Assembly (NCBI RefSeq): GCF_030013595.1 | Contig: NZ_CP122768.1 | Source of the DNA: Escherichia coli | Lineage (GTDB): Bacteria; Pseudomonadota; Gammaproteobacteria; Enterobacterales; Enterobacteriaceae | Reading direction: 5' to 3' (one strand) | DNA length: 64,000 nucleotides | Part shown: one piece after another, positions 1 to 31,064 of the stretch | How positions within the stretch are numbered: the first letter of the stretch is position 1 | Layout: each line of letters opens with the position of its first letter | The notes under the pieces: model-generated | Databases searched by the model: none | What the model saw: the letters and a program-made list of their open reading frames with translations, nothing else | What the model was told of the DNA's origin: nothing | Position numbers and translations under genes: made by a program

Positions 1-982
1 TACGCCGCCGCCGAAAATGGGGACGACGTCTACAGCTCAGCAACCGCAAATTCAGCCGGTACAGCAGCCACAAATTCAGGCAACTCAACAACCGCAAATC
101 CAGCCGGTGCAGCCAGTAGCTCAGCAGCCGGTACAGATGGAAAACGGACGCATCGTCTACAACCGTCAGTATGGGAACATTCCGAAAGGCAGTTATAGCG
201 GCAGTACCTATACCGTGAAAAAAGGCGACACACTTTTCTATATCGCCTGGATTACTGGCAACGATTTCCGTGACCTTGCTCAGCGCAACAATATTCAGGC
301 ACCATACGCGCTGAACGTCGGTCAGACCTTACAGGTGGGTAATGCTTCCGGTACGCCAATCACTGGCGGAAATGCCATTACCCAGGCCGATGCAGCAGAG
401 CAAGGAGTTGTGATCAAGCCTGCACAAAATTCCACCGTTGCTGTTGCTTCGCAACCGACAATTACGTATTCTGAGTCTTCGGGTGAACAGAGTGCTAACA
501 AAATGTTGCCGAACAACAAGCCAACTGCGACCACGGTCACAGCGCCTGTAACGGTACCAACAGCAAGCACAACCGAGCCGACTGTCAGCAGTACATCAAC
601 CAGTACGCCTATCTCCACCTGGCGCTGGCCGACTGAGGGCAAAGTGATCGAAACCTTTGGCGCTTCTGAGGGGGGCAACAAGGGGATTGATATCGCAGGC
701 AGCAAAGGACAGGCAATTATCGCGACCGCAGATGGCCGCGTTGTTTATGCCGGTAACGCACTGCGCGGCTACGGTAATCTGATTATCATCAAACATAATG
801 ATGATTACCTGAGTGCCTACGCCCATAACGACACAATGCTGGTCCGGGAACAACAAGAAGTGAAGGCGGGGCAAAAAATAGCAACCATGGGTAGCACCGG
901 AACCAGTTCAACACGCTTGCATTTTGAAATTCGTTACAAGGGGAAATCCGTAAACCCGCTGCGTTATTTGCCGCAGCGATAA
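1..982 (+). CDS. nlpD: NlpD murein hydrolase activator lipoprotein, 5' end truncated by the window edge (LysM-like segment and C-terminal M23/LytM-like domain)
   Basis: Open frame runs from the window edge to TAA at 980-982; translation ...[18 protein letters not shown]... matches NlpD as I recall it; the ATG at 17 in the ORF track is internal. Confidence 0.93.
20..140 (+). repeat. Imperfect tandem ~21-24 bp repeats encoding a Gln/Pro-rich linker (QQPQIQP units) inside nlpD
   Basis: Direct reading: repeated cag-caa/cca-ccg-caa-att-cag-ccg-gt units giving [25 protein letters not shown]. Confidence 0.45.
444..472 (+). promoter_or_regulatory. Candidate main rpoS promoter inside nlpD (-35 ttgctt 444-449, 17-bp spacer, -10 tattct 467-472)
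   Basis: Hexamers with 17-bp spacing; predicted start ~479 gives a ~566-nt leader to the rpoS ATG at 1045, matching the known long rpoS 5' UTR (from memory). Confidence 0.55.
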
Positions 983-1044
983 ATCGGCGGAACCAGGCTT
1001 TTGCTTGAATGTTCCGTCAAGGGATCACGGGTAGGAGCCACCTT

Positions 1045-2037
1045 ATGAGTCAGAATACGCTGAAAGTTCATGATTTAAATGAAGATGCGGAATTTGATGA
1101 GAACGGAGTTGAGGTTTTTGACGAAAAGGCCTTAGTAGAAGAGGAACCCAGTGATAACGATTTGGCCGAAGAGGAACTGTTATCGCAGGGAGCCACACAG
1201 CGTGTGTTGGACGCGACTCAGCTTTACCTTGGTGAGATTGGTTATTCACCACTGTTAACGGCCGAAGAAGAAGTTTATTTTGCGCGTCGCGCACTGCGTG
1301 GAGATGTTGCCTCCCGCCGCCGGATGATCGAGAGTAACTTGCGTCTGGTGGTAAAAATTGCCCGCCGTTATGGCAATCGTGGTCTGGCGTTGCTGGACCT
1401 GATCGAAGAGGGCAACCTGGGGCTGATCCGCGCGGTAGAGAAGTTTGACCCGGAACGTGGTTTCCGCTTCTCAACATACGCAACCTGGTGGATTCGCCAG
1501 ACGATTGAACGGGCGATTATGAACCAAACCCGTACTATTCGTTTGCCTATTCACATCGTAAAGGAGCTGAACGTTTACCTGCGAACCGCACGCGAGTTGT
1601 CCCATAAACTGGACCACGAACCAAGTGCGGAAGAGATCGCAGAGCAACTGGATAAGCCAGTTGATGACGTCAGCCGTATGCTTCGTCTTAACGAGCGCAT
1701 TACCTCGGTAGACACCCCGCTGGGTGGTGATTCCGAAAAAGCGTTGCTGGACATCCTGGCCGATGAAAAAGAGAACGGTCCGGAAGATACCACGCAAGAT
1801 GACGATATGAAGCAGAGCATCGTCAAATGGCTGTTCGAGCTGAACGCCAAACAGCGTGAAGTACTGGCACGTCGATTCGGTTTGCTGGGGTACGAAGCGG
1901 CAACACTGGAAGATGTAGGTCGTGAAATTGGCCTCACCCGTGAACGTGTTCGCCAGATTCAGGTTGAAGGCCTGCGCCGTTTGCGCGAAATCCTGCAAAC
2001 GCAGGGGCTGAATATCGAAGCGCTGTTCCGCGAGTAA
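1045..2037 (+). CDS. rpoS: RNA polymerase sigma factor RpoS (sigma-S/sigma-38), 330 aa
   Basis: Translation [34 protein letters not shown]... with sigma-70 family regions; the track ORF from 1009 is a 5' over-extension; codon 33 is GAG. Confidence 0.96.
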
Positions 2038-2054
2038 GTAAGCATCTGTCAGAA

Positions 2055-2089
2055 AGGCCAGTCTCAAGCGAGGCTGGCCTTTTTCTTTT
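2055..2089 (+). terminator. Intrinsic terminator downstream of rpoS
   Basis: Stem aggccag(2055-2061)/ctggcct(2074-2080) followed by tttttctttt. Confidence 0.7.
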
Positions 2090-2157
2090 GGTTGGGAAGT
2101 CGGTGTGTTTTGTCGCCTGGATAAGACTCGTCAGCGTCCTACCCGGCAATCAGCATC

Positions 2158-2565
2158 CTATTTGCTCATCATCTTGCGCACCAACTGCATAAACAGCTCC
2201 TTCTCTTCTGCACTCAAACGCCCCAAAAATTCCTCATCCACACTGTCACCAATGGGGATCGCCGCAGCAAGTACCTTTTCTCCTTCGGCAGTCAGCCAGA
2301 CAAAGCGACGCCGCTTGTCAGCGGCGTCATGTTCACGTCTGACTAAGCCACGATTTTCCATTCTTGCCAACATTTCTGCCAGCGTTGCTTTGGTGCTGAC
2401 TGCTGCTTCTATCAGTGCCACCTGTTCGATACCAGGCTTATCAGCAATGGCGCGCATCACCGCGTACTGTGGTTTGGTGAGGTCAGGTAACTCGTGCTGC
2501 CAGCGAGCCGTGTGCTGCTGAAAAAGCTGTCGTAACTGATGGAACGCTTTATTTCGTAACGCCAT
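2158..2565 (-). CDS. MarR-family winged-helix transcriptional regulator, divergent from the decarboxylase operon
   Basis: Translation MALRNKAFHQLRQLF...DKRRRFVWLTAEGEKV has a MarR-type wHTH; start chosen at ATG 2565 because of GGAG Shine-Dalgarno 6 nt upstream; the track start at 2598 lacks one. Confidence 0.8.
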   Translation of the reverse strand: MALRNKAFHQLRQLFQQHTARWQHELPDLTKPQYAVMRAIADKPGIEQVALIEAAVSTKATLAEMLARMENRGLVRREHDAADKRRRFVWLTAEGEKVLAAAIPIGDSVDEEFLGRLSAEEKELFMQLVRKMMSK

Positions 2566-2680
2566 GTAAACTCCGGGCAAACTATCTGCCGCTATCATAG
2601 CGGTTTTTCAGTGACGAAGAAGATGTTGTTACTTTTCAGTGCTTGCCGCGATGAAAACAGAGGCGTATTTTAATAATGAC

Positions 2681-2694
2681 GTTCGTATACGAAC
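2681..2694. promoter_or_regulatory. Perfect 14-bp palindrome gttcgtatacgaac, candidate operator for the adjacent MarR-type regulator
   Basis: Exact inverted repeat 18 bp upstream of the ATG at 2712, inside the divergent promoter region. Confidence 0.45.
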
Positions 2695-2711
2695 AATTAA
2701 GAGAATAAACA

Positions 2712-3305
2712 ATGAGACTGATCGTCGGGATGACAGGGGCTACCGGTGCGCCTCTTGGGGTGGCATTACTGCAAGCGCTGCGGGAGATGCCGAATGTCGA
2801 GACTCATCTGGTGATGTCGAAGTGGGCGAAAACCACTATTGAACTGGAAACGCCTTACAGCGCTCGCGATGTTGCCGCCCTCGCAGACTTCAACCATAAC
2901 CCGGCGGATCAGGCGGCGACTATCTCTTCCGGCTCCTTTCGTACCGACGGCATGATCGTTATTCCATGCAGTATGAAAACGCTCGCCGGTATCCGCGCTG
3001 GTTACGCCGATGGTCTCGTGGGGCGCGCGGCGGACGTCGTGCTCAAAGAAGGCCGCAAACTGGTGCTGGTGCCGCGTGAAATGCCGCTTAGCACAATCCA
3101 TCTCGAAAATATGCTCGCACTTTCGCGCATGGGCGTGGCGATGGTGCCGCCGATGCCTGCCTTTTATAACCATCCCGAAACGGTAGATGACATTGTCCAC
3201 CACGTGGTAGCCCGCGTGCTGGATCAATTTGGCCTCGAACATCCTCACGCCAGGCGCTGGCAAGGATTGCCGCAGGCCCGGAATTTTTCTCAGGAGAATG
3301 AATAA
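2712..3305 (+). CDS. ecdB: UbiX/Pad1-family flavin prenyltransferase, subunit B of a hydroxyarylic acid (phenolic acid) decarboxylase
   Basis: Translation MRLIVGMTGATGAPLGVALLQAL... typical of UbiX-like proteins; first gene of a B-C-D operon; symbol by analogy to ecdBCD/kpdBCD naming, as recalled. Confidence 0.85.
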   Translation: MRLIVGMTGATGAPLGVALLQALREMPNVETHLVMSKWAKTTIELETPYSARDVAALADFNHNPADQAATISSGSFRTDGMIVIPCSMKTLAGIRAGYADGLVGRAADVVLKEGRKLVLVPREMPLSTIHLENMLALSRMGVAMVPPMPAFYNHPETVDDIVHHVVARVLDQFGLEHPHARRWQGLPQARNFSQENE

Positions 3306-4732
3306 TGGCATTTGATGATTTACGCAGCTTTTTACAGGCGCTTGATGACCACGGCCAGTTACTGAAAATCAGCGAAGAGGTGAACGCGGAACCGGATCTG
3401 GCAGCCGCTGCCAACGCCACCGGACGTATCGGCGATGGTGCACCGGCGCTGTGGTTTGACAATATTCGCGGCTTTATCGATGCCCGCGTGGCAATGAATA
3501 CCATCGGTTCCTGGCAGAACCACGCGATTTCCCTCGGCCTGCCGCCAAACACCCCGGTTAAAAAGCAGATTGATGAGTTTATCCGCCGCTGGGATAACTT
3601 CCCCATTACCCCGGAGCGCCGCGCCAATCCAGCCTGGGCGCAGAACACCGTCGATGGCGACGAGATCAACCTGTTCGATATTCTGCCGCTGTTTCGTTTA
3701 AACGACGGTGATGGCGGTTTCTATCTCGATAAAGCGTGCGTGGTTTCCCGCGATCCGCTCGACCCGGATAACTTCGGCAAGCAGAACGTCGGCATCTACC
3801 GCATGGAAGTGAAGGGCAAACGTAAGCTCGGCCTGCAACCGGTGCCGATGCACGATATCGCTCTGCATCTGCATAAAGCGGAAGAACGCGGTGAAGATCT
3901 GCCGATTGCCATCACCCTGGGTAACGATCCGATCATCACCCTGATGGGCGCCACGCCGCTGAAATACGATCAGTCTGAGTACGAAATGGCGGGCGCGCTG
4001 CGCGAAAGCCCGTACCCGATCGCCACCGCCCCGCTGACCGGTTTTGATGTGCCGTGGGGCTCGGAAGTGATCCTCGAAGGGGTTATCGAAAGTCGTAAAC
4101 GTGAGATTGAAGGGCCGTTCGGTGAGTTTACCGGTCACTACTCCGGCGGGCGTAACATGACCGTGGTGCGTATCGATAAAGTCTCTTACCGTACCAAACC
4201 GATTTTCGAATCGCTCTATCTTGGTATGCCGTGGACCGAAATCGACTACCTGATGGGGCCTGCCACCTGCGTGCCGCTGTATCAGCAACTGAAAGCCGAG
4301 TTCCCGGAAGTGCAGGCGGTAAACGCCATGTACACCCACGGCCTGTTGGCGATTATCTCCACCAAAAAACGCTACGGCGGCTTTGCCCGCGCGGTGGGCC
4401 TGCGTGCAATGACCACGCCGCACGGTCTGGGCTACGTGAAGATGGTGATTATGGTCGATGAAGACGTTGATCCGTTCAACCTGCCGCAGGTGATGTGGGC
4501 GCTCTCCTCGAAAGTGAACCCGGCAGGCGACCTGGTGCAGTTGCCAAATATGTCCGTGCTGGAACTCGACCCTGGCTCAAGCCCGGCGGGGATCACCGAC
4601 AAGCTGATTATCGACGCCACCACGCCTGTCGCCCCGGACAACCGTGGTCACTACAGCCAGCCGGTGGTGGATTTACCGGAAACCAAAGCCTGGGCTGAAA
4701 AACTGACTGCTATGCTGGCCGCACGTAAATAA
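3305..4732 (+). CDS. ecdC: UbiD-family decarboxylase, catalytic subunit C of a hydroxyarylic acid decarboxylase
   Basis: 475-aa ORF with UbiD-like sequence; start overlaps the upstream stop (ATAATGG), indicating translational coupling. Confidence 0.85.
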   Translation: MAFDDLRSFLQALDDHGQLLKISEEVNAEPDLAAAANATGRIGDGAPALWFDNIRGFIDARVAMNTIGSWQNHAISLGLPPNTPVKKQIDEFIRRWDNFPITPERRANPAWAQNTVDGDEINLFDILPLFRLNDGDGGFYLDKACVVSRDPLDPDNFGKQNVGIYRMEVKGKRKLGLQPVPMHDIALHLHKAEERGEDLPIAITLGNDPIITLMGATPLKYDQSEYEMAGALRESPYPIATAPLTGFDVPWGSEVILEGVIESRKREIEGPFGEFTGHYSGGRNMTVVRIDKVSYRTKPIFESLYLGMPWTEIDYLMGPATCVPLYQQLKAEFPEVQAVNAMYTHGLLAIISTKKRYGGFARAVGLRAMTTPHGLGYVKMVIMVDEDVDPFNLPQVMWALSSKVNPAGDLVQLPNMSVLELDPGSSPAGITDKLIIDATTPVAPDNRGHYSQPVVDLPETKAWAEKLTAMLAARK

Positions 4733-4742
4733 GGAGAACAAG

Positions 4743-4979
4743 ATGATTTGTCCACGTTGTGCCGATGAACAGATTGAAGTGATGGCGAAATCGCCGGTGA
4801 AAGATGTCTGGACGGTCTACCAGTGCCAGCATTGCCTTTATACCTGGCGCGATACCGAACCGCTACGCCGCACTAGCCGCGAACATTATCCCGAAGCGTT
4901 CCGCATGACGCAGAAAGATATTGATGACGCGCCGATGGTGCCGAGCATCCCGCCGCTGCTGGCGGAAGGTAAGCGCTAA
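4743..4979 (+). CDS. ecdD: Small subunit D of the hydroxyarylic acid decarboxylase (Cys-rich, 78 aa)
   Basis: MICPRCADEQ...CQHC motif; position and size match the small D subunit of B-C-D operons; AAGGAG Shine-Dalgarno upstream. Confidence 0.75.
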   Translation: MICPRCADEQIEVMAKSPVKDVWTVYQCQHCLYTWRDTEPLRRTSREHYPEAFRMTQKDIDDAPMVPSIPPLLAEGKR

Positions 4980-4981
4980 AT

Positions 4982-5010
4982 AAAAGGTCCGATGCCCATC
5001 GGACCTTTTT
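4982..5010. terminator. Bidirectional intrinsic terminator between the convergent ecdD and ygbN
   Basis: aaaa + stem ggtccgatg/catcggacc (4986-5005) + ttttt. Confidence 0.7.
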
Positions 5011-5017
5011 ATTAAGG

Positions 5018-6382
5018 TCAAATTACCGCCCATACGCACCAGGTAATTAAGAATCCGGTAAAACCGAGAATGGTCGTTAACACTGTCCAGGTTTTCAGAC
5101 CGTCTGCTACCGACAACCCCAGATATTTGGTCACAATCCAGAACCCTGAGTCATTAATATGTGACGCGCCAAGCCCACCAAAGCAGGCTGCCAGCGTCAC
5201 CAATACGCACTGAATCGGATTCAATCCCATCACCGCTTCTGAGAGTAACCCGCCGGTTGTCAGGATTGCTACGGTTGCTGACCCCTGCGATGCACGCAGC
5301 GCCAGTGAAATAATAAATGCGGCTGGTAACAGAGGCAGGTCAATCATTTGTAGCATGTTGGCAAGGGCTTTGCCGACGCCCGATTCCACCAGCACTTTGC
5401 CAAATACCCCTCCAGCACCAGTAACCAAAATCACTACCGCCGCAGTGGGAAGGGCTGAGCCCATAATGTCGCTGGTGTGTTGTAAGCTCCAGCCGCGACG
5501 TAAAGCCAATAACCAGAATGCCAGTACCAGCGCAATCATTAGAGCTACCATTGGTGAGCCGATCAGCTGTAGCGTACCAAGCAGGGGATGCGAAGGCGGC
5601 ATCAGTGTTGCGGAAACCGTACCCGCCATGATAATCGCGATAGGAATAACAATTAGCGAGGTGACCAGCGCGACGCCCGGTGGATTTATTTTATCGCTTA
5701 ATTTTGTCGCGCCTTCCTCACTGGCCGGAGCCAGTTGCATCTGTTCCAGTACTTCCACCGACATCGCATATTGGCGCTTATTGATTATTTTCGCTGCAAA
5801 GTAGCCAACAATCCCTACTGGAATAGAAATCGCAATACCGATGATGGTTAGCCAGCCGATGTCTGCGTGGAGTAACCCCGCTGCGGCGACAGGGCCTGGA
5901 TGCGGCGGTACCGCCACATGAACAGTTAGCATGATTCCAGCGACAGGCAGGCCAAATTTGAGTGGCGATATTTTGGCAACCTTGGCAAAACCGTAAATGA
6001 TTGGCGCAAGAATAATAAAGCCGACATCAAAGAAGACGGGAATACCGAGGAAGAACGCTGCCAGAGTCAGCGCAGCGATAGTTCGTTTGTCACCTAACTT
6101 GCGACTGAAATAATTAGCCAGTGACTCTGCACCACCAGAGTGTTCGATCATACGCCCCAGCATAGCGCCCAGACCAATAATAATAGTGACGGAACCAAGC
6201 ACACCGCCCATCCCGGCGATCATCACTTTACCCACTTCGCCCGCCGGTATACCCGCCGCAAGTGCGACTAACAGGCTGACGAGGAGCAGAGCAACGAATG
6301 GTTGTACCTTTGCCTTGATGACCAGCAGCAACAGCATGATTACGCCAGTTAACGCAATGCATAACAATGTAATTGTGGACAT
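5018..6382 (-). CDS. ygbN: GntP-family permease (putative acid-sugar transporter)
   Basis: 454-aa polytopic membrane protein MSTITLLCIALTGVIMLLLLVIKAK...; order ygbJ-K-L-M-N conserved. Confidence 0.9.
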   Translation of the reverse strand: MSTITLLCIALTGVIMLLLLVIKAKVQPFVALLLVSLLVALAAGIPAGEVGKVMIAGMGGVLGSVTIIIGLGAMLGRMIEHSGGAESLANYFSRKLGDKRTIAALTLAAFFLGIPVFFDVGFIILAPIIYGFAKVAKISPLKFGLPVAGIMLTVHVAVPPHPGPVAAAGLLHADIGWLTIIGIAISIPVGIVGYFAAKIINKRQYAMSVEVLEQMQLAPASEEGATKLSDKINPPGVALVTSLIVIPIAIIMAGTVSATLMPPSHPLLGTLQLIGSPMVALMIALVLAFWLLALRRGWSLQHTSDIMGSALPTAAVVILVTGAGGVFGKVLVESGVGKALANMLQMIDLPLLPAAFIISLALRASQGSATVAILTTGGLLSEAVMGLNPIQCVLVTLAACFGGLGASHINDSGFWIVTKYLGLSVADGLKTWTVLTTILGFTGFLITWCVWAVI

Positions 6383-11829: not shown

Positions 11830-14391
11830 TTACACCAGACTCTTCAAGCGATAAATCCACTCCAGCGCCTGACGCGGAGTCAGTGAATCCGGGTCGAGAT
11901 TTTCCAGTGCTTCGACCGCAGGCGAAGTTTCTTCTGGCACTGACAGCAAAGACATTTGCGTACCATCCACTTGCGTAGCGGCGGCGTTCGGCGAAATGCT
12001 TTCCAGCTCACGCAGTTTTTGCCGTGCGCGCTTAATAACCTCTTTTGGCACGCCGGCCAGAGCTGCAACCGCCAGGCCGTAGCTTTTGCTCGCTGCGCCA
12101 TCCTGCACGCTGTGCATAAAGGCAATGGTGTCGCCGTGCTCCAGTGCATCGAGATGCACGTTGGCGACGCCTTCCATTTTCTCCGGTAACTGGGTCAGCT
12201 CGAAATAGTGGGTAGCAAACAACGTCAACGCTTTAATCTTATTCGCCAGATTTTCCGCGCACGCCCACGCCAGCGACAGACCATCGTAAGTGGACGTTCC
12301 ACGCCCAATCTCATCCATCAGCACCAGACTGTACTCGGTGGCGTTATGTAAAATATTGGCGGTTTCGGTCATTTCCACCATAAAGGTTGAACGCCCGGAT
12401 GCCAGATCATCCGCTGCCCCTACGCGGGTAAAGATGCGATCGATAGGTCCAATCTTGACTTTTTGTGCCGGTACATAGCTGCCGATGTAGGCCATCAGCG
12501 CAATCAGTGCGGTCTGGCGCATATAGGTACTTTTACCGCCCATATTCGGACCGGTAATGATCAACATGCGACGCTGCGGCGACAGGTTCAGCGGGTTGGC
12601 GATAAACGGCTCATTCAGCACCTGTTCAACCACCGGATGGCGGCCTTCGGTGATGCGAATACCCGGTTTATCAATAAAGGTCGGGCAGGTGTAGTTCAGC
12701 GTATAGGCCCGTTCCGCCAGGTTCACCAGCACGTCGAGTTCCGCCAGCGCGCTCGCGCTCTGTTGCAACGCTTCCAGATGCGGCAACAGCAGGTCGAACA
12801 ACTCTTCATAAAGCTGTTTTTCCAGTGCCAGTGCTTTGCCTTTTGAAGTGAGAACTTTGTCTTCGTACTCTTTTAGCTCTGGAATAATGTAGCGCTCGGC
12901 GTTTTTCAGCGTCTGGCGACGCATGTAATTGATGGGTGCCAGATGGCTTTGTCCACGGCTGATCTGAATGTAATAACCATGAACCGCGTTAAAGCCGACT
13001 TTCAGGGTGTCCAGGCCAGTACGTTCACGCTCGCGGACTTCCAGACGCTCCAGATAATCGGTCGCGCCGTCAGCCAGCGCGCGCCACTCATCCAGCTCTT
13101 CGTTATAGCCCGATGCGATAACACCACCGTCGCGTACCAGCACTGGCGGTGTGTCGATGATTGCCCGCTCCAGCAGATCGCGCAGCTCGGCAAACTCGCC
13201 CATTTTTTCACGTAGCGCCTGTACCGGAGCGCTATCGACATTTTCTAACTGCGCACGCAGCTCCGGCAGTTGCTGGAAAGCGTGACGCATACGGGCCAGA
13301 TCGCGTGGGCGAGCAGTTCGTAAAGCCAGACGCGCCAGAATACGTTCCAGGTCGCCGACCTGACGCAGCACCGGCTGTAGCTCGGCGGTGAAATCCTGCA
13401 ATGCGCCAATAGTTTGCTGGCGCTCAAGCAACACGCGGGTATCGCGCACTGGCATATGCAGCCAGCGTTTCAGCATACGACTACCCATCGGCGTTACAGT
13501 GCAGTCGAGCACTGAAGCCAGCGTGTTTTCCGCACCGCCCGCCAGGTTCTGGGTAATTTCCAGGTTACGACGCGTCGCGGCATCCATAATGATGCTGTCC
13601 TGCTCACGTTCCATAGTGATAGAACGAATATGCGGCAGAGTCGTACGTTGGGTATCTTTCGCATACTGCAACAGACAACCGGCAGCACAAAGTCCGCGCG
13701 GCGCGTTCTCGACGCCAAAACCGACCAGATCGCGGGTGCCAAATTGCAGATTCAACTGCTGGCGCGCGGTGTCGATTTCAAACTCCCACAGCGGACGACG
13801 GCGCAGACCGCGACGACCTTCAATCAGCGACATCTCAGCAAAATCTTCTGCATATAGCAGTTCCGCCGGATTAGTGCGTTGCAGTTCTGCCGCCATCGTT
13901 TCCCGGTCAGCCGGTTCGCTCAGGCGAAAACGACCGGAACTGATATCCAGCGTCGCGTAGCCGAAACCTTTACTGTCCTGCCAGATAGCCGCCAGCAGAT
14001 TGTCCTGGCGCTCTTGTAACAGGGCTTCATCGCTGATGGTGCCTGGCGTAACGATACGCACAACTTTGCGCTCAACCGGACCTTTGCTGGTCGCCGGATC
14101 GCCAATTTGTTCGCAGATGGCAACGGACTCTCCCTGATTCACCAGTTTGGCGAGATAGTTTTCCACCGCATGGTAGGGGATCCCCGCCATCGGGATCGGC
14201 TCTCCCGCTGAAGCACCGCGTTTGGTCAGTGAAATATCCAGCAGCTGCGAGGCGCGTTTCGCGTCGTCATAAAACAGTTCGTAAAAGTCACCCATCCGAT
14301 AGAACAGCAGGATCTCGGGATGCTGGGCTTTCAGCTTGAGATACTGCTGCATCATTGGCGTATGGGCATCAAAATTTTCTATTGCACTCAT
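11830..14391 (-). CDS. mutS: DNA mismatch repair protein MutS
   Basis: 853-aa [43 protein letters not shown]... with Walker [10 protein letters not shown]. Confidence 0.97.
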
Positions 14392-14637
14392 GGGGTTATG
14401 TCCGGTTCCCTGATATTAAATGGGGTGTGATGGTTTTTATTTTCGTTGTAATCACATAAGGCGCACATGATACCGGAGTTAATCATTTCAGGGGAAGAAG
14501 CGAACGGCGAGTTCTTGATGGTGATTCCGCGAAAGATGCTGTTTTGCAGCTTTTGCGTGATGCTTATGAAGCAGGTACGCAAAATTGCGTCGGTTGAATA
14601 AACCTCCTCCTTCAGAGCCATAGTCCCCTTTCAAATT

Positions 14638-14660
14638 AAGTTGTAATATAAATACACCTT
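14638..14660 (+). promoter_or_regulatory. Candidate NsrR operator upstream of ygbA (aagttgtaatataaatacacctt)
   Basis: 23-bp imperfect inverted repeat resembling the NsrR 11-1-11 consensus, 18 bp upstream of the ygbA ATG; ygbA is a known NsrR regulon member (from memory). Confidence 0.45.
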
Positions 14661-14677
14661 AAGAGTATGGAGGCAGC

Positions 14678-15022
14678 ATGTCCGGCAAGCGTATCTCTCG
14701 TGAAAAACTGACGATTAAAAAAATGATCGATCTTTATCAAGCGAAATGCCCGCAGGCGTCAGCGGAGCCGGAGCATTACGACGCGCTGTTTGCCTACGCG
14801 CAAAAGCGGCTGGATAAATGTGTGTTCGGCGAAGAGAAACCAGCCTGTAAGCAGTGTCCGGTGCACTGTTACCAGCCTGCAAAGCGTGAAGAGATGAAAC
14901 AGATTATGCGTTGGGCCGGGCCGAGAATGCTGTGGCGTCATCCGATCTTAACCGTGCGTCATCTCATCGATGACAAGCGTCCGGTGCCGGAGTTGCCAGA
15001 AAAATATCGTCCAAAGAAATAA
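14678..15022 (+). CDS. ygbA: Small Cys-containing protein YgbA (nitrosative-stress regulon member)
   Basis: 114-aa ORF MSGKRISREKLTIKKMIDLYQAKCP...; GGAGG Shine-Dalgarno upstream. Confidence 0.88.
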   Translation: MSGKRISREKLTIKKMIDLYQAKCPQASAEPEHYDALFAYAQKRLDKCVFGEEKPACKQCPVHCYQPAKREEMKQIMRWAGPRMLWRHPILTVRHLIDDKRPVPELPEKYRPKK

Positions 15023-15025
15023 ATC

Positions 15026-15050
15026 TGCCGGAGAGCCATACTCTCCGGCA
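15026..15050. terminator. Hairpin between the convergent ygbA and molbindin gene (possible bidirectional terminator)
   Basis: Stem tgccggagag/ctctccggca with 5-nt loop; flanking U-runs are weak. Confidence 0.45.
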
Positions 15051-15060
15051 AATAAGGCGT

Positions 15061-15489
15061 TTACGCTTTGGTGGCAATCAGGATGGCTGATGCTTTGATC
15101 AATGCAATAACGCGCGAGCCAGTGGTGAGTTTCATTTCATCCTGACTTTCATTTGTTACCACTGCCACAATTTCAAAACCCGCATCCGTTTTGATATGGA
15201 CAGTGGCGTTCACTGCGCCTTCGGTGATTGTCGACACGCTGCCAGCAAACTGGTTGCGAGCAGAGAATTTCAGTCCACAGTCTTCCGTTGCCAGCGTGAC
15301 CCACGGGGCTTTAATCAGGGCAATCGCTTCTTTCCCTTTTGCCAGACCCAGAGCCTGCTGGCTGCTGTGAGTCACAATTGCCACCAGCTTTGCACCACCT
15401 GCCAGCGTCAGTTCTACTTCATCATTCACAGCGCCCATTGCTACTGCGCTAACTGTTCCGGTTAATTGATTTCTTGCTGAAACTGCCAT
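15061..15489 (-). CDS. Tandem-TOBE (Mop-like) molybdate/tungstate-binding molbindin, ~142 aa
   Basis: Two internal repeats each starting SARNQ(L/F)xGxV...; start at ATG 15489 preceded by AAGGAGG; lies 44 bp downstream of the fhlA stop on the same strand. Confidence 0.75.
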   Translation of the reverse strand: MAVSARNQLTGTVSAVAMGAVNDEVELTLAGGAKLVAIVTHSSQQALGLAKGKEAIALIKAPWVTLATEDCGLKFSARNQFAGSVSTITEGAVNATVHIKTDAGFEIVAVVTNESQDEMKLTTGSRVIALIKASAILIATKA

Positions 15490-15533
15490 ACTGCCTCCTT
15501 TCATTGAATGTTGATCGAGTATAACCACATCTG

Positions 15534-17612
15534 TTAAATCAATGCCGATTTATCAATTCCCAGCCGCTTCATCCGTGACAGCAGGGTCGTGCGTTTCAGC
15601 CCCAGACGTTGCGCAGCGCCTTTAGGCCCGGCAACCACGCCGTTGGTTTCTTTCAGCACGCGCACAATCAACTGATATTCATCTTCGCCCTCCTGGGCGA
15701 CAACCGTTGCGGCAGGCGGCGTTTCAGGCTCCGGTAAAGCAATATCTGGCAATGACAGCTGCAGCACGTTGCCGCGTGTTAGCAATACTGCGCGCTCAAT
15801 GACGTTTTCCAGTTCGCGTACGTTACCCGGCCACTCCATGTTGCTCAAGGTGCGCAGCGTCTCGGCAGGAATGCTGTCGATATTGCGCCCCAGACGACGG
15901 GCAATTTTGAAGGTAAAGGCTTTCGCCAGCAGCGGAATATCTTCCGGACGCTCGCGTAGTGGCGGCAGGTGAATCGGGAATACGTTCAGGCGGTAATAGA
16001 GATCGCTACGGAACTCTCGGTCGGCGACCATTTTTTTCAGATCGCGGTTAGTTGCGGCAATTAAACGTACGTCCGTCTGAATGATTTTGTTGCTGCCGAG
16101 ACGTTCAAACTCCTGTTCCTGCAATACACGCAGCAACTTCGGCTGTAACTCCAGTGGCATATCGCCCACTTCGTCGAGGAACAGAGAGCTTTTATCCGCC
16201 AGTTCAAAACGACCAATGCGCTGGGCGCTGGCACCGGTAAAAGCCCCACGCTCATGACCAAACAGATCGCTCTCCAGCAATCCGGCAGGCATCGCCGCGC
16301 AGTTCATTTTGACCATGCGGCGATTATTACGCCCACTGAGATTATGGATAGCACGGGCAATCAGCTCTTTACCCGTGCCAGTTTCACCGAGGATCAGCAC
16401 GGTACTGTCACTTTGCGCCACCATTTCAACTTGTTTAAGCACGCTGTACATGGCTTCGCTGCGGCCAATAATCTCGCCAAATTCACTATCAACATTGTTG
16501 AGCTGCTCGGTCAGGGCGAGGTTTTCATCAACCAGCCGTTCTTTCAGACGATGGATTTCCTGATAGGCGAGGGCGTTATCGACAGCGATTGCCACACGTT
16601 CGGCAATCTGGCGCAGTAAATTCAGATTGGTAGTGGTAAAGACTTTCTCTTCGCATTGCGCCAGTTTCAGCACGCCCAGCATGGTGTCGCCAGACATCAG
16701 CGGTAACAGGCACAAGGTTTGAATCTGGTTGCCCCAGGTGTCGAACAACATGCGTTCATAGGGGGCTAAATCGTCCCGCTCGTGGAGATTAATCAACAGC
16801 ATCTCTTTACTTTTGAAGACGCGTTCGGTGAGGGTTCCGGCTTCATCGACTTCGCTCTGTTCGTGGGCGGGATGCTGTTTATCAAGATAGTGAGTGGAGT
16901 AGATGTTGAGTTTGTTTTTACGGTGGCTGCGTAAGACGATGCTGATATCGTCAATGTCGAAGTAGTAATGGATTTCTTTGGCGACTTCGCTGACCAGTTC
17001 GTCCATATCCAGGCGGGAAAGCACCGCGTTGGTAATGGCAACCAGGATGCGGAAGTTATCGCGTTCCCGGCATAACAACTCATAGTCGACATTGTTAACG
17101 ACGCGGCTCTGGATTTGTTCGGTGACGACAGAAACGATCTGCGTAAATGTTTGCAGACGATTGAACTCTTTTTCGCTCCAGGGGCGATCGTCATAACGAA
17201 TAAATTCACAGCCACCAAAAATATGCCCTTCCGCCGCCAGTGGCATCAGGCAATAGTGACCAAATTTGGGGTATAGCCCACCTGCGGCCAGCTGCGGCCA
17301 GGTTTCACAAAATTCTTCGTAACTGCAATGCAGCGTATCAGGGCGCGACAAAATGCTGCGTACCGGACCGTGTGCCAGAACAGTTTCGTCTTCATATTTA
17401 ATGGGGGTGTCTTTTTCACGCGACGCGTAATAAGACGCACGTTGAGTCTGCGCTTGCCACAACACAATAGCCGCGTTGTCGGCGAGCGCAGAACGCTTTA
17501 CCAGTAGCGAAAGAGCCTCACACAGCGAGGCCAGATCGGGCTGCTGCAATAGTGTCCGAGTGATGTCGAACAACCCTTGTTGTCCGAGATCACTCATCGG
17601 TGTATATGACAT
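15534..17612 (-). CDS. fhlA: Formate hydrogenlyase transcriptional activator FhlA (sigma-54 dependent, GAF + AAA+ + HTH)
   Basis: Translation MSYTPMSDLGQQGLFDITRTLLQQ... with GAFTGA sigma-54 interaction motif; the track start at 17648 is a 5' over-extension. Confidence 0.95.
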   Translation of the reverse strand: MSYTPMSDLGQQGLFDITRTLLQQPDLASLCEALSLLVKRSALADNAAIVLWQAQTQRASYYASREKDTPIKYEDETVLAHGPVRSILSRPDTLHCSYEEFCETWPQLAAGGLYPKFGHYCLMPLAAEGHIFGGCEFIRYDDRPWSEKEFNRLQTFTQIVSVVTEQIQSRVVNNVDYELLCRERDNFRILVAITNAVLSRLDMDELVSEVAKEIHYYFDIDDISIVLRSHRKNKLNIYSTHYLDKQHPAHEQSEVDEAGTLTERVFKSKEMLLINLHERDDLAPYERMLFDTWGNQIQTLCLLPLMSGDTMLGVLKLAQCEEKVFTTTNLNLLRQIAERVAIAVDNALAYQEIHRLKERLVDENLALTEQLNNVDSEFGEIIGRSEAMYSVLKQVEMVAQSDSTVLILGETGTGKELIARAIHNLSGRNNRRMVKMNCAAMPAGLLESDLFGHERGAFTGASAQRIGRFELADKSSLFLDEVGDMPLELQPKLLRVLQEQEFERLGSNKIIQTDVRLIAATNRDLKKMVADREFRSDLYYRLNVFPIHLPPLRERPEDIPLLAKAFTFKIARRLGRNIDSIPAETLRTLSNMEWPGNVRELENVIERAVLLTRGNVLQLSLPDIALPEPETPPAATVVAQEGEDEYQLIVRVLKETNGVVAGPKGAAQRLGLKRTTLLSRMKRLGIDKSALI

Positions 17613-29401: not shown

Positions 29402-30175
29402 TTGAACATCAGAACAGGGATGTGCGCTTTTTTATTGAGCTTAGTGCTGCCTGCACAGGCCACCAGCTTTACCGAATATCTGCCGATGAGTGACAGCGAA
29501 TACGCGCAAAAGCGGGCGCTGAAACCTCTCCTGACCATGCCTTATGATGCCGAGCAAAACTGGCATTTTAGAAAAGTCGGCGTTGCTGGCGTGACGCTTG
29601 AAAAGATGCCAAATGATGATAGTGAATGGCAATTGAACGGTAAAGATCGCGCCGGTAAATCCTGGTCTGTGCCTGTGGGGGTGCTGCAAAATATGGCGGG
29701 TAATGCGCAACTTTACCGTGCCGATCTTGATCGTAACGGCATTCAGGATCTAGTTATCTGGCGGGGTATTTCAGGAAATGGTCTGGCACCTAACGCGTTT
29801 TTGATTCTGATGACCTTTAATCAGCAAGGTCGCCCGTGTGTTTTTCAGTCCGATGGTTTTTATACCGCAAGTGAAACTGGCATTGATGATTTGCTGGATT
29901 TACAAAGGAATGGCCACACGCAATTGCTGGATATGCAGTTTGATTCCGGTTACTGGATAACCAGTCTGTATCAGGTAAAAGACGCCAAATGGCAGCGTGT
30001 TCACGGCTGGTTTGGCAAGTTAAGCTATCCCGCGCTCACGCGTTTTACTTATACCCCCAACCGTAAACTCGTCCTCAAACCCATCGCCGGGCGCGACCCG
30101 CAATCGGAAGATCTGGCGCTGACGCAGCGTTGCTTGATAAAGGGGGATGTGCTTTATGGGGTGAATCAGAACTGA
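29402..30175 (+). CDS. Uncharacterised predicted secreted protein (~257 aa) with N-terminal signal peptide and two Asp-rich D-x-D/Q-x-N-G loops
   Basis: n-region with Arg, hydrophobic core CAFLLSLVL, AQA|TS cleavage site; motifs ADLDRNGIQDLVIW and LDLQRNGHTQLLD; start ambiguous between TTG 29402 and ATG 29420; only 24 bp after the hycI stop with no terminator. Confidence 0.6.
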   Translation: MNIRTGMCAFLLSLVLPAQATSFTEYLPMSDSEYAQKRALKPLLTMPYDAEQNWHFRKVGVAGVTLEKMPNDDSEWQLNGKDRAGKSWSVPVGVLQNMAGNAQLYRADLDRNGIQDLVIWRGISGNGLAPNAFLILMTFNQQGRPCVFQSDGFYTASETGIDDLLDLQRNGHTQLLDMQFDSGYWITSLYQVKDAKWQRVHGWFGKLSYPALTRFTYTPNRKLVLKPIAGRDPQSEDLALTQRCLIKGDVLYGVNQN

Positions 30176-30237
30176 CTTTTTGCAGAGTGGCTATGTGGAT
30201 TTTGGGGGTAATTATATAGCGTACAAGTGTTTACATA

Positions 30238-30266
30238 TTGTGAACTTTGATTTGATGAGCTATAGT
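30238..30266 (+). promoter_or_regulatory. Candidate sigma-70 promoter for the HigBA-like pair (-35 ttgtga, 17-bp spacer, -10 tatagt)
   Basis: Hexamers in an AT-rich spacer ~70 bp upstream of the toxin ATG. Confidence 0.4.
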
Positions 30267-30336
30267 TTCCGAACACATAAGGATAGAACTCGCAGATGTG
30301 GCTGTTTACTTACTATAAGGAAGTTAAAACTTAAAA

Positions 30337-30648
30337 ATGCACATCATTTCTAAAGCGCCATTTGAAGAGTGTGCGCGCAAATATCCTAACGACGCTCTGG
30401 CTCTACACTCATTGTATCGGGTTATTAAGGAAACGGATTTTTCTACACCAGAAGAAATGCGAACGGCGTTTCCCAACCTCGACAATTTTAGATATCGCAA
30501 CAAATGGTACGTTCTGGATGTCGGCGGGAACAATCTTAGGGTTATTGCCTACATAAACTTTGTTAATAAGCGGTTCTTTGTGAAGCACATAACGAATCAC
30601 GCAGAGTATGACAAACTGACACGTTACTACAGAGAGAACAAAGAATGA
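30337..30648 (+). CDS. HigB-family type II toxin (RelE/ParE-fold mRNA interferase), 103 aa
   Basis: MHIISKAPFEECARKYP...FPNLDNFRYRNKWYVLDVGGNNLRVIAYI... resembles HigB/YgjN-type toxins; toxin gene precedes the antitoxin with a 4-bp ATGA overlap. Confidence 0.8.
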   Translation: MHIISKAPFEECARKYPNDALALHSLYRVIKETDFSTPEEMRTAFPNLDNFRYRNKWYVLDVGGNNLRVIAYINFVNKRFFVKHITNHAEYDKLTRYYRENKE

Positions 30649-31064
30649 CTGCTAATGCTGCACGCGCTGTTAAAGCAACAAGAGAACTGGTCAATGCAGT
30701 CCCCTTTCTGGGAGGTAGTGACTCAGAAGATGATTATCGTGAAGCACTGGAACTGGTCGAATATTTGATTGAAGAAGATGACACCAATCCACTTATCGAC
30801 TTTCTGGCGAGCCGCATTGCAGAGTATGAAAGCAACAACGAAAAGTTTGCAGAGTTCGACAAAGCCGTTGCTGCAATGCCGGTTGGCGTGGCGTTACTTC
30901 GTACGCTGATTGATCAACATAATCTGACCTACGCGGATTTGAAGAACGAAATCGGCTCTAAATCCCTGGTCAGTCAGATTTTGTCTGGGCAACGATCCCT
31001 GACGATATCCCACATTAAGGCACTTTCAGCCCGATTTGGTGTTAAGCCGGAATGGTTTCTTTGA
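30645..31064 (+). CDS. HigA-family antitoxin (XRE-type HTH at the C-terminus), 139 aa
   Basis: ...GSKSLVSQILSGQRSLTISHIKALSARFGV... HTH segment; translationally coupled to the upstream toxin. Confidence 0.8.
   Translation: MTANAARAVKATRELVNAVPFLGGSDSEDDYREALELVEYLIEEDDTNPLIDFLASRIAEYESNNEKFAEFDKAVAAMPVGVALLRTLIDQHNLTYADLKNEIGSKSLVSQILSGQRSLTISHIKALSARFGVKPEWFL

Follow-up and report, generated by a model that had tools for sequence, protein, structure and literature searches.

A ModG-type tandem TOBE protein encoded directly after fhlA in Escherichia coli and other Enterobacteriaceae

The sequence analysed here (the window) is a stretch of 64,000 nucleotides from Escherichia coli. It carries a small gene coding for a protein of 142 amino acids, the TOBE gene, which lies between fhlA, located upstream on the same strand, and ygbA, which is its convergent downstream neighbour. 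The features of the locus are collected in Table 1. A preliminary description, made from the letters of the sequence alone, had reported an open reading frame of about 142 codons at this place, with an AAGGAGG ribosome-binding site and a gap of 44 bp to the fhlA stop codon on the same strand. All of this is confirmed: the stop codon occupies 15534-15536, and exactly 44 nt separate it from the TOBE gene. The translation reads MAVSARNQLTGTV...ILIATKA*, and within it are found MAVSARNQLTGTVSAV...SARNQFAGSVSTI...ILIATKA. The protein has no N-terminal extension, the upstream frame being closed by the ribosome-binding site and the fhlA stop codon.

Table 1. Features of the fhlA-ygbA region, in coordinates of the window
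Feature	Position	Strand	Basis
di-TOBE (di-Mop) protein CDS, ModG-type molbindin, 142 aa	15061..15489	-	ORF and translation; RefSeq CDS
TOBE/Mop domain 1, residues 4-66	15292..15480	-	Pfam PF03459, E=1.6e-17
TOBE/Mop domain 2, residues 76-137	15079..15264	-	Pfam PF03459, E=6.2e-16
Shine-Dalgarno AAGGAGG, 4 nt 5' of the TOBE gene ATG	15494..15500	-	read from the sequence
TATACT, -10-like hexamer in the fhlA-TOBE spacer, candidate weak internal promoter element	15518..15523	-	
fhlA, sigma-54 activator of the formate hydrogenlyase regulon	15534..17612	-	RefSeq identical coordinates; tblastn
intrinsic terminator hairpin, 14-bp stem and T-rich tail, 7 nt past the TOBE stop codon	15023..15053	-	terminator scan
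ygbA, convergent downstream neighbour of the TOBE gene	14678..15022	+	

Some neighbouring parts of the window deserve mention in their own right. Between hycI and ascB (29420-31064) the annotation lists a hypothetical protein and also a HigB-family toxin / HTH antitoxin pair, in a place where K-12 is not known to have any gene. A MarR-family regulator, together with hydroxyarylic acid decarboxylase subunits B, C and D, lies between rpoS and ygbN (2158-4979), and matches the yclC/kpdC-containing pattern that is a known polymorphism of the mutS-rpoS region (PMC4209514). The mutS-ygbA intergenic region contains a 44-aa 'hypothetical protein' (WP_165787351.1; 14467-14601, plus strand), of which a K-12-like strain has a 59-aa version. 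For fhlA itself, PGAP gives the symbol 'flhA' and the product 'FlhA', that is, the name of a flagellar export gene, and does so in thousands of RefSeq E. coli genomes.

The TOBE gene has already been annotated and reported, and is a strain-variable member of a structurally solved family. A RefSeq coding sequence, WP_000301062.1 ("TOBE domain-containing protein"), has the same coordinates in E. coli HCP5S3_I2 (NZ_CM149870.1), a comparison genome with 100% identity to the window across a 951-bp query (window 14650-15600). The gene also corresponds to c3292 of strain CFT073, from which it differs in nothing, and which bears a homology-based name only; the c3292 primer of an earlier study (PMC4209514) matches window 15446-15464 exactly. 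In the databases the identical protein goes under the names "TOBE domain-containing protein", "transporter", "molybdopterin-binding protein", "molybdenum-pterin-binding protein" and "molybdate transport system regulatory protein", and Lerminiaux et al. (PMC7232297) named the gene "modE". A search of the literature found passing mentions (PMC4209514, PMC7232297) and no functional study of the protein, whether of binding, expression or phenotype.

Two TOBE/Mop domains span the whole of the 142 residues, and a DNA-binding or ATPase domain is absent. Each domain opens with SARNQ(L/F)xGxV, as had been read from the sequence previously. With the NCBIfam model TIGR00638 (Mop, molybdenum-pterin binding domain) the score is 142 bits, the cutoff being 55; PF03459 and TIGR00638 thus both place the protein in the TOBE/Mop family. 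The full-length ModE and ModC models of NCBIfam score far under their cutoffs; for the ModE model NF007957 the score is 88 bits versus a cutoff of 369, and the protein aligns solely to ModE residues ~124-261.

Solved structures were searched both by sequence and by fold. By sequence, the best match is ModG from Azotobacter vinelandii (1h9j, E=5e-33, residues 1-140), followed by weaker matches to the di-Mop region of E. coli ModE (~1e-15) and to single-domain Mop and Tub proteins (~1e-9). A monomer model was made with AlphaFold2, using an alignment of 30 sequences that reaches down to 40% identity (alignment A2), and has a mean pLDDT of 96.6. The top Foldseek matches of the model are again ModG, namely 1h9j, 1h9k and 1h9m (TM 0.94-0.95, rmsd 1.3-1.4 Å), with 48% identity, TM 0.95 and rmsd 1.3 Å for 1h9j; the ModE di-Mop region gives TM 0.88-0.90 at 34-36% identity. 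Pfam, TIGR00638, the PDB sequence search and the fold search therefore all agree with the tandem-TOBE molbindin assignment made in the preliminary description.

The oxyanion-binding sites of this family have been described in detail for Tub from Eubacterium limosum (9beb). Its type-1 site is formed by the backbone of A20, V21 and N22, and its type-2 site by S4, R6, K60 and A61 of one chain with S40 of the neighbouring chain; the sites are described as resembling those of ModG, Mop and ModE (PMC11980592). In the 142-aa protein, the candidate ligands of domain 1 are S4, R6, A20-V21-N22, T40, S43, K60 and A61, and all but S43 have the same numbering as the Tub site residues. The corresponding candidates in domain 2 are S76, R78, A92-V93-N94, T112, S115, K132 and A133. 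In alignment A2 most of these positions are invariant in both domains, and the remainder nearly so.

Comparison with the known relatives places the protein closest to ModG of A. vinelandii (PDB 1h9j/1h9k/1h9m; Delarbre et al. 2001). ModG has 145 residues and, like the protein described here, consists of two Mop/TOBE domains only, with SARN, GAVN and KA(P/S) motifs in both. By architecture, fold and conserved predicted ligand positions, the 142-aa protein is thus a ModG-type molbindin. The genetic setting is different: A. vinelandii modG is described as located with modEABC and regulated by ModE (Mouncey 1996, as cited in PMC11980592), whereas the TOBE gene follows hyp-fhlA, has no ModE box, and has no mod genes in the annotated 50 kb of the window. 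Linkage to mod genes and ModE control belong to the type example, however, and are not a strict mark of the family.

The likeness to E. coli ModE (1h9r/1h9s/1o7l) is confined to its di-Mop part, which has the same tandem TOBE fold, and whose SARN, T-x-x-S and KAP motifs align with the ligand residues of domain 1. The second domain of ModE has lost its SARN motif (NADNQ), which the 142-aa protein and ModG keep in both domains. The N-terminal winged-helix DNA-binding domain of ModE is absent here. Lacking this helix-turn-helix part, the protein is ruled out as a ModE-type transcription factor, which makes "modE", the name used by Lerminiaux et al. (PMC7232297) and in some annotations, a misnomer. 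The single-domain proteins, namely Mop (C. pasteurianum MopII, 1gug; S. ovata, 1fr3; H. influenzae) and Tub, share the same TOBE domain and the type-1 and type-2 ligand positions, with 40% identity per domain for Tub. They differ in having one domain of ~70 aa and in forming hexamers, in place of two fused domains.

The coding status of the gene was examined by comparison with 23 orthologues for which dS could be estimated, including those of E. albertii, Citrobacter, Klebsiella, Raoultella, Kluyvera, Pluralibacter and Kosakonia. By the Nei-Gojobori method, dN/dS is 0.02-0.10, with dS >1 in most comparisons, and amino-acid identity across genera is 80-99% while dS exceeds 1. The GGAG of the ribosome-binding site does not vary among the 15 orthologous upstream regions of alignment A3, and among the E. 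coli genomes that carry the gene, 1889 of 1892 have it at full length. The gene is under strong purifying selection. A chance open reading frame is ruled out by the dN/dS values and by the RefSeq coding sequence at the same coordinates, and a pseudogene by the dN/dS values together with the full-length copies.

These results bear directly on the idea that the gene has no function and is a remnant, such as a modE duplicate that was truncated, is decaying, and has already been lost by K-12. Such an idea draws on the fact that ~65% of E. coli genomes do without the gene, and on the 'modE' and 'molybdate transport system regulatory protein' labels found in some annotations. The selection data effectively refute a decaying modE fragment, conservation extends to the ligand residues and the ribosome-binding site, and the identity to the E. 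coli modE product is so low (34-36%) that the gene is no recent copy of it. We consider a remnant extremely improbable.

Within E. coli the gene shows a presence/absence polymorphism. It is carried by 1892 of 5426 complete genomes (35%), always as one copy and always on the chromosome. Nearly all the genomes that lack it have matches to the two flanks only, and in every listed example, namely the K-12-like strain EC590, O157:H7 and O111:H8, the flank matches fall at the same coordinates. In the alignment, K-12-type, O157 and O111 strains show a clean gap of ~470 bp, which runs from the fhlA stop codon to the hairpin following ygbA. In MG1655 the distance from fhlA (b2731) to ygbA (b2732) is 36 bp, with no gene between, versus 511 bp in the window. 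The preliminary description had suggested that the K-12 interval might be of similar length, which is incorrect; it had also offered the gene as either unannotated or strain-variable, of which the second stands, and the first does not, given the RefSeq entry and c3292 of CFT073.

The same difference is visible in published work. The fhlA-mutS amplicon measures 1,673 bp in CFT073 versus 1,208 bp in MG1655 and EDL933 (Ewers et al., PMC4209514), and the longer form is reported as typical of strains with pattern III, CFT073 among them, this pattern being associated with phylogroup B2 (PMC4209514). In K-12, ygbA is the sole gene between fhlA and mutS (Lerminiaux et al., PMC7232297).

One interrupted copy was seen in E. 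coli FDAARGOS_1285, a clinical isolate (NZ_CP070152.1; locus L003, 2288-3126), in which an IS1A copy cuts the TOBE gene short after ~46 codons. Annotation of this strain gives the order surE-pcm-nlpD-IS1-TOBE'-fhlA. Since rpoS, the entire mutS-rpoS variable region, mutS and ygbA all seem to have been deleted, the strain would be a probable rpoS-null mutator.

Gene context outside E. coli was surveyed using one genome per species, which gave 49 related loci; these were sorted by tblastn with FhlA, HypE, YgbA and MutS. The TOBE gene lies directly after fhlA at 36 of them, with spacers of ~38-105 nt, in Escherichia, Citrobacter, Pseudocitrobacter, Klebsiella, Raoultella, Kluyvera, Pluralibacter, Enterobacter, Yokenella, Lelliottia and Kosakonia. 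At three loci (Phytobacter and Kosakonia sp. S29) it directly follows hypE, and at two it follows ascB, with the hyc-hyp-fhlA block missing and ygbA still downstream. Five loci place it in unrelated contexts (Serratia, Cedecea, Edwardsiella), and the other three are distant non-enterobacterial homologues. Because the gene is found across Enterobacteriaceae, and follows fhlA at 36 loci and hypE at three, its presence is ancestral. The comparison of loci likewise shows that the position after hyp-fhlA is the ancestral one in this family, and that K-12, O157 and O111 represent a derived state brought about by deletion.

At the two ascB-type loci, namely L021 (Raoultella sp. BIGb0138) and L037 (Enterobacter sp. 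BIGb0383), ascF-ascB is directly followed by the TOBE gene (600-4450). Its retention there without hyc-hyp-fhlA argues that the protein is useful in the absence of formate hydrogenlyase. An exact-protein look-up found further copies in Pantoea and Salmonella, which are also located away from fhlA. The homologues in contexts other than fhlA imply that the protein is not strictly dependent on formate hydrogenlyase.

The copy in Salmonella enterica is 87-89% identical and occurs in some serovars (L004 and L059, in both at 4963-5429). It sits in an island with insertion sequence fragments and fimbrial genes around it; the neighbours are IstB and TnpB_IS66 fragments, fimbrial usher and chaperone genes, and CaiF/GrlA-like genes. 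By blastn, nucleotide homology to E. coli extends only from -37 relative to the ATG to the stop codon, which suggests that the gene moved there, or came in by horizontal transfer, as a bare unit. A MAFFT alignment of the upstream regions (A3) had hinted at an fhlA remnant upstream of the Salmonella copies. This was rejected, as the blastn homology begins 8 nt past the fhlA stop codon.

The tight and ancient linkage to fhlA could also point to a regulatory protein that senses molybdate and, in its loaded form, interacts with FhlA, or with ModE or HycA, so as to tune transcription of the formate regulon, in effect a ModE-like sensor without the DNA-binding head. The tandem domains have their homologue in the sensing half of ModE, and transcription of hyc and fdhF reportedly depends on molybdate. 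Sequence identity, however, puts the protein nearer to the storage-type ModG (48%) than to ModE (34-36%), and it has full ligand sets in both domains, as ModG does, whereas the second domain of ModE is without SARN. The gene is moreover kept where fhlA is absent or elsewhere (loci L021, L037, L042, L047 and L054, and Pantoea and Serratia). In addition, the formate hydrogenlyase of K-12 is fully molybdate-responsive without the TOBE gene, which makes the gene dispensable. On this evidence we regard a sensing role as unlikely.

Expression signals around the gene were then considered. The terminator hairpin, which is placed between the convergent TOBE gene and ygbA, has an RNA fold of -25.2 kcal/mol (z = -5.15 versus shuffled sequences), and the same terminator scan found no terminator-like hairpin in the 44-nt fhlA-TOBE spacer. 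The anatomy of the locus (same strand, a spacer free of terminators, and conserved adjacency) is compatible with co-transcription with hyp-fhlA. Because the only strong terminator comes after the TOBE gene, the latter would form the last cistron of hypBCDE-fhlA transcripts, reached by read-through under anaerobic conditions with formate present. The FhlA/sigma-54 hyp promoter and an FNR-dependent promoter within hypA drive hypBCDE-fhlA, from which we infer that expression of the TOBE gene would be anaerobic and stimulated by formate.

In K-12-type strains a similar hairpin is found directly 3' of fhlA, so that transcripts ending there in K-12 would traverse the TOBE gene in the window. The two hairpins are not the same in sequence: the stem reads GCCGGAGAG/CTCTCCGGC in the window (15023-15053) versus GCCGGACAG/CTGTCCGGC in the K-12 type (L002, 1886-1915), which is a compensatory change, and the loops differ too. 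The C-terminus of YgbA also differs, with 114 aa ending KK* here versus 117 aa ending KKPHE* in K-12-type strains.

The fhlA-TOBE spacer contains a possible promoter element. A hexamer TATA(C/A)(T/A) occurs ~30 nt before the ATG, and its TATA is invariant in the 15 upstream regions of alignment A3, including those of the Salmonella and Pantoea copies that do not adjoin fhlA; the Salmonella homology from -37 includes the motif. The window version, TATACT, might act as the -10 element of a promoter, weak or activator-dependent, that belongs to the TOBE gene itself, and the gene may therefore have its own promoter instead of, or besides, read-through. A consensus scan of 14400-15900 found no sigma-70 promoter, and a relaxed scan anchored on the TATA motif, with 6-10/12 matches, found no conserved -35 partner, so that an internal promoter gains no support from these scans. 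No structured RNA was found in 14300-15800, where there are zero Rfam matches even at E<=1.

Control by ModE was assessed by scanning for its operator, ATCGNTATATA-N5-7-TATATANCGAT, in the 200 nt upstream of the TOBE gene in the window and in 31 orthologous loci. The best scores are 10-14/20, compared to 9-13 in random pieces of the window. The scores are indistinguishable from background, and the scan thus provides no evidence for ModE control of the TOBE gene.

The molecular function can be proposed with good confidence by analogy. The protein is probably a trimeric molbindin of the ModG type, which would bind molybdate or tungstate at sites between subunits. A trimer and eight bound molybdates are features of ModG itself, and are predicted on that model for the 142-aa protein. 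Its trimer would be a pseudo-hexamer of Mop domains, since two fused domains per chain make a trimer equal to the hexamer assembled from single-domain proteins, and would hold as many as eight oxyanions, molybdate or tungstate, at the subunit interfaces. The predicted ligands are provided by the SARN, GAVN, T-x-x-S and KA(P/S) motifs of both domains.

The physiological role is proposed less firmly than the molecular function, and is most likely that of a cytoplasmic molybdate buffer or store. The role of ModG has been defined in relation to nitrogenase, and E. coli has no nitrogenase. Here molybdate would be buffered or stored for the anaerobic molybdoenzymes, foremost among them FDH-H of formate hydrogenlyase. 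Expression would coincide with that of the maturation and regulatory genes of formate hydrogenlyase, at a time when FDH-H and other anaerobic molybdoenzymes are being made. The synteny across Enterobacteriaceae lends support to the putative functional link to the molybdenum-dependent formate hydrogenlyase that the preliminary description had proposed. From the ancestral arrangement, K-12-type lineages have lost the gene by the clean ~470-bp deletion.

A variant on the nature of the ligand is that tungstate is the physiological one ('TudG'-type), the protein serving either to sequester tungstate, and so spare Mo-cofactor enzymes such as FDH-H from poisoning by tungsten, or to supply a tungsten enzyme. 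TOBE proteins bind both molybdate and tungstate, and the ModG/TudG architecture is reported as frequent among those gut genomes for which tungsten use is predicted (PMC11980592), E. coli being a gut organism. The neighbourhood holds no tungsten-related genes, however, with no tupABC or WOR nearby, and a preference for molybdenum or tungsten looks the same at the level of sequence, so that the variant refines the molybdate buffer rather than replaces it. We think it quite improbable that tungstate is the physiological ligand.

A bolder reading is that the molbindin is a dedicated component of the formate hydrogenlyase system that K-12 has lost, co-expressed with FhlA, and either delivering molybdate for the FDH-H cofactor or signalling to FhlA-dependent transcription. 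This seems to us unlikely. If it were true, decades of work on hyc/fdhF and molybdate in K-12 would have been done without a part of the ancestral circuit.

The practical value of the analysis is modest, and no new kind of system is described. What is added is the family assignment, the ancestral presence with deletion in K-12, the breadth of the hyp-fhlA linkage, and the finding of neither a ModE box nor a convincing promoter. As regards annotation, "modE", "transporter" and "molybdate transport system regulatory protein" are erroneous names for what is a ModG-type molbindin. As regards evolution, the gene is ancestral and linked to hyp-fhlA throughout Enterobacteriaceae, with K-12, O157 and O111 showing the derived condition. 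About one third of E. coli (including the ExPEC strain CFT073), together with Citrobacter and Klebsiella, carry a predicted molybdate buffer, possibly co-expressed with the regulator of formate hydrogenlyase, and this buffer could affect molybdenum and tungsten homeostasis and hydrogen production in the gut.
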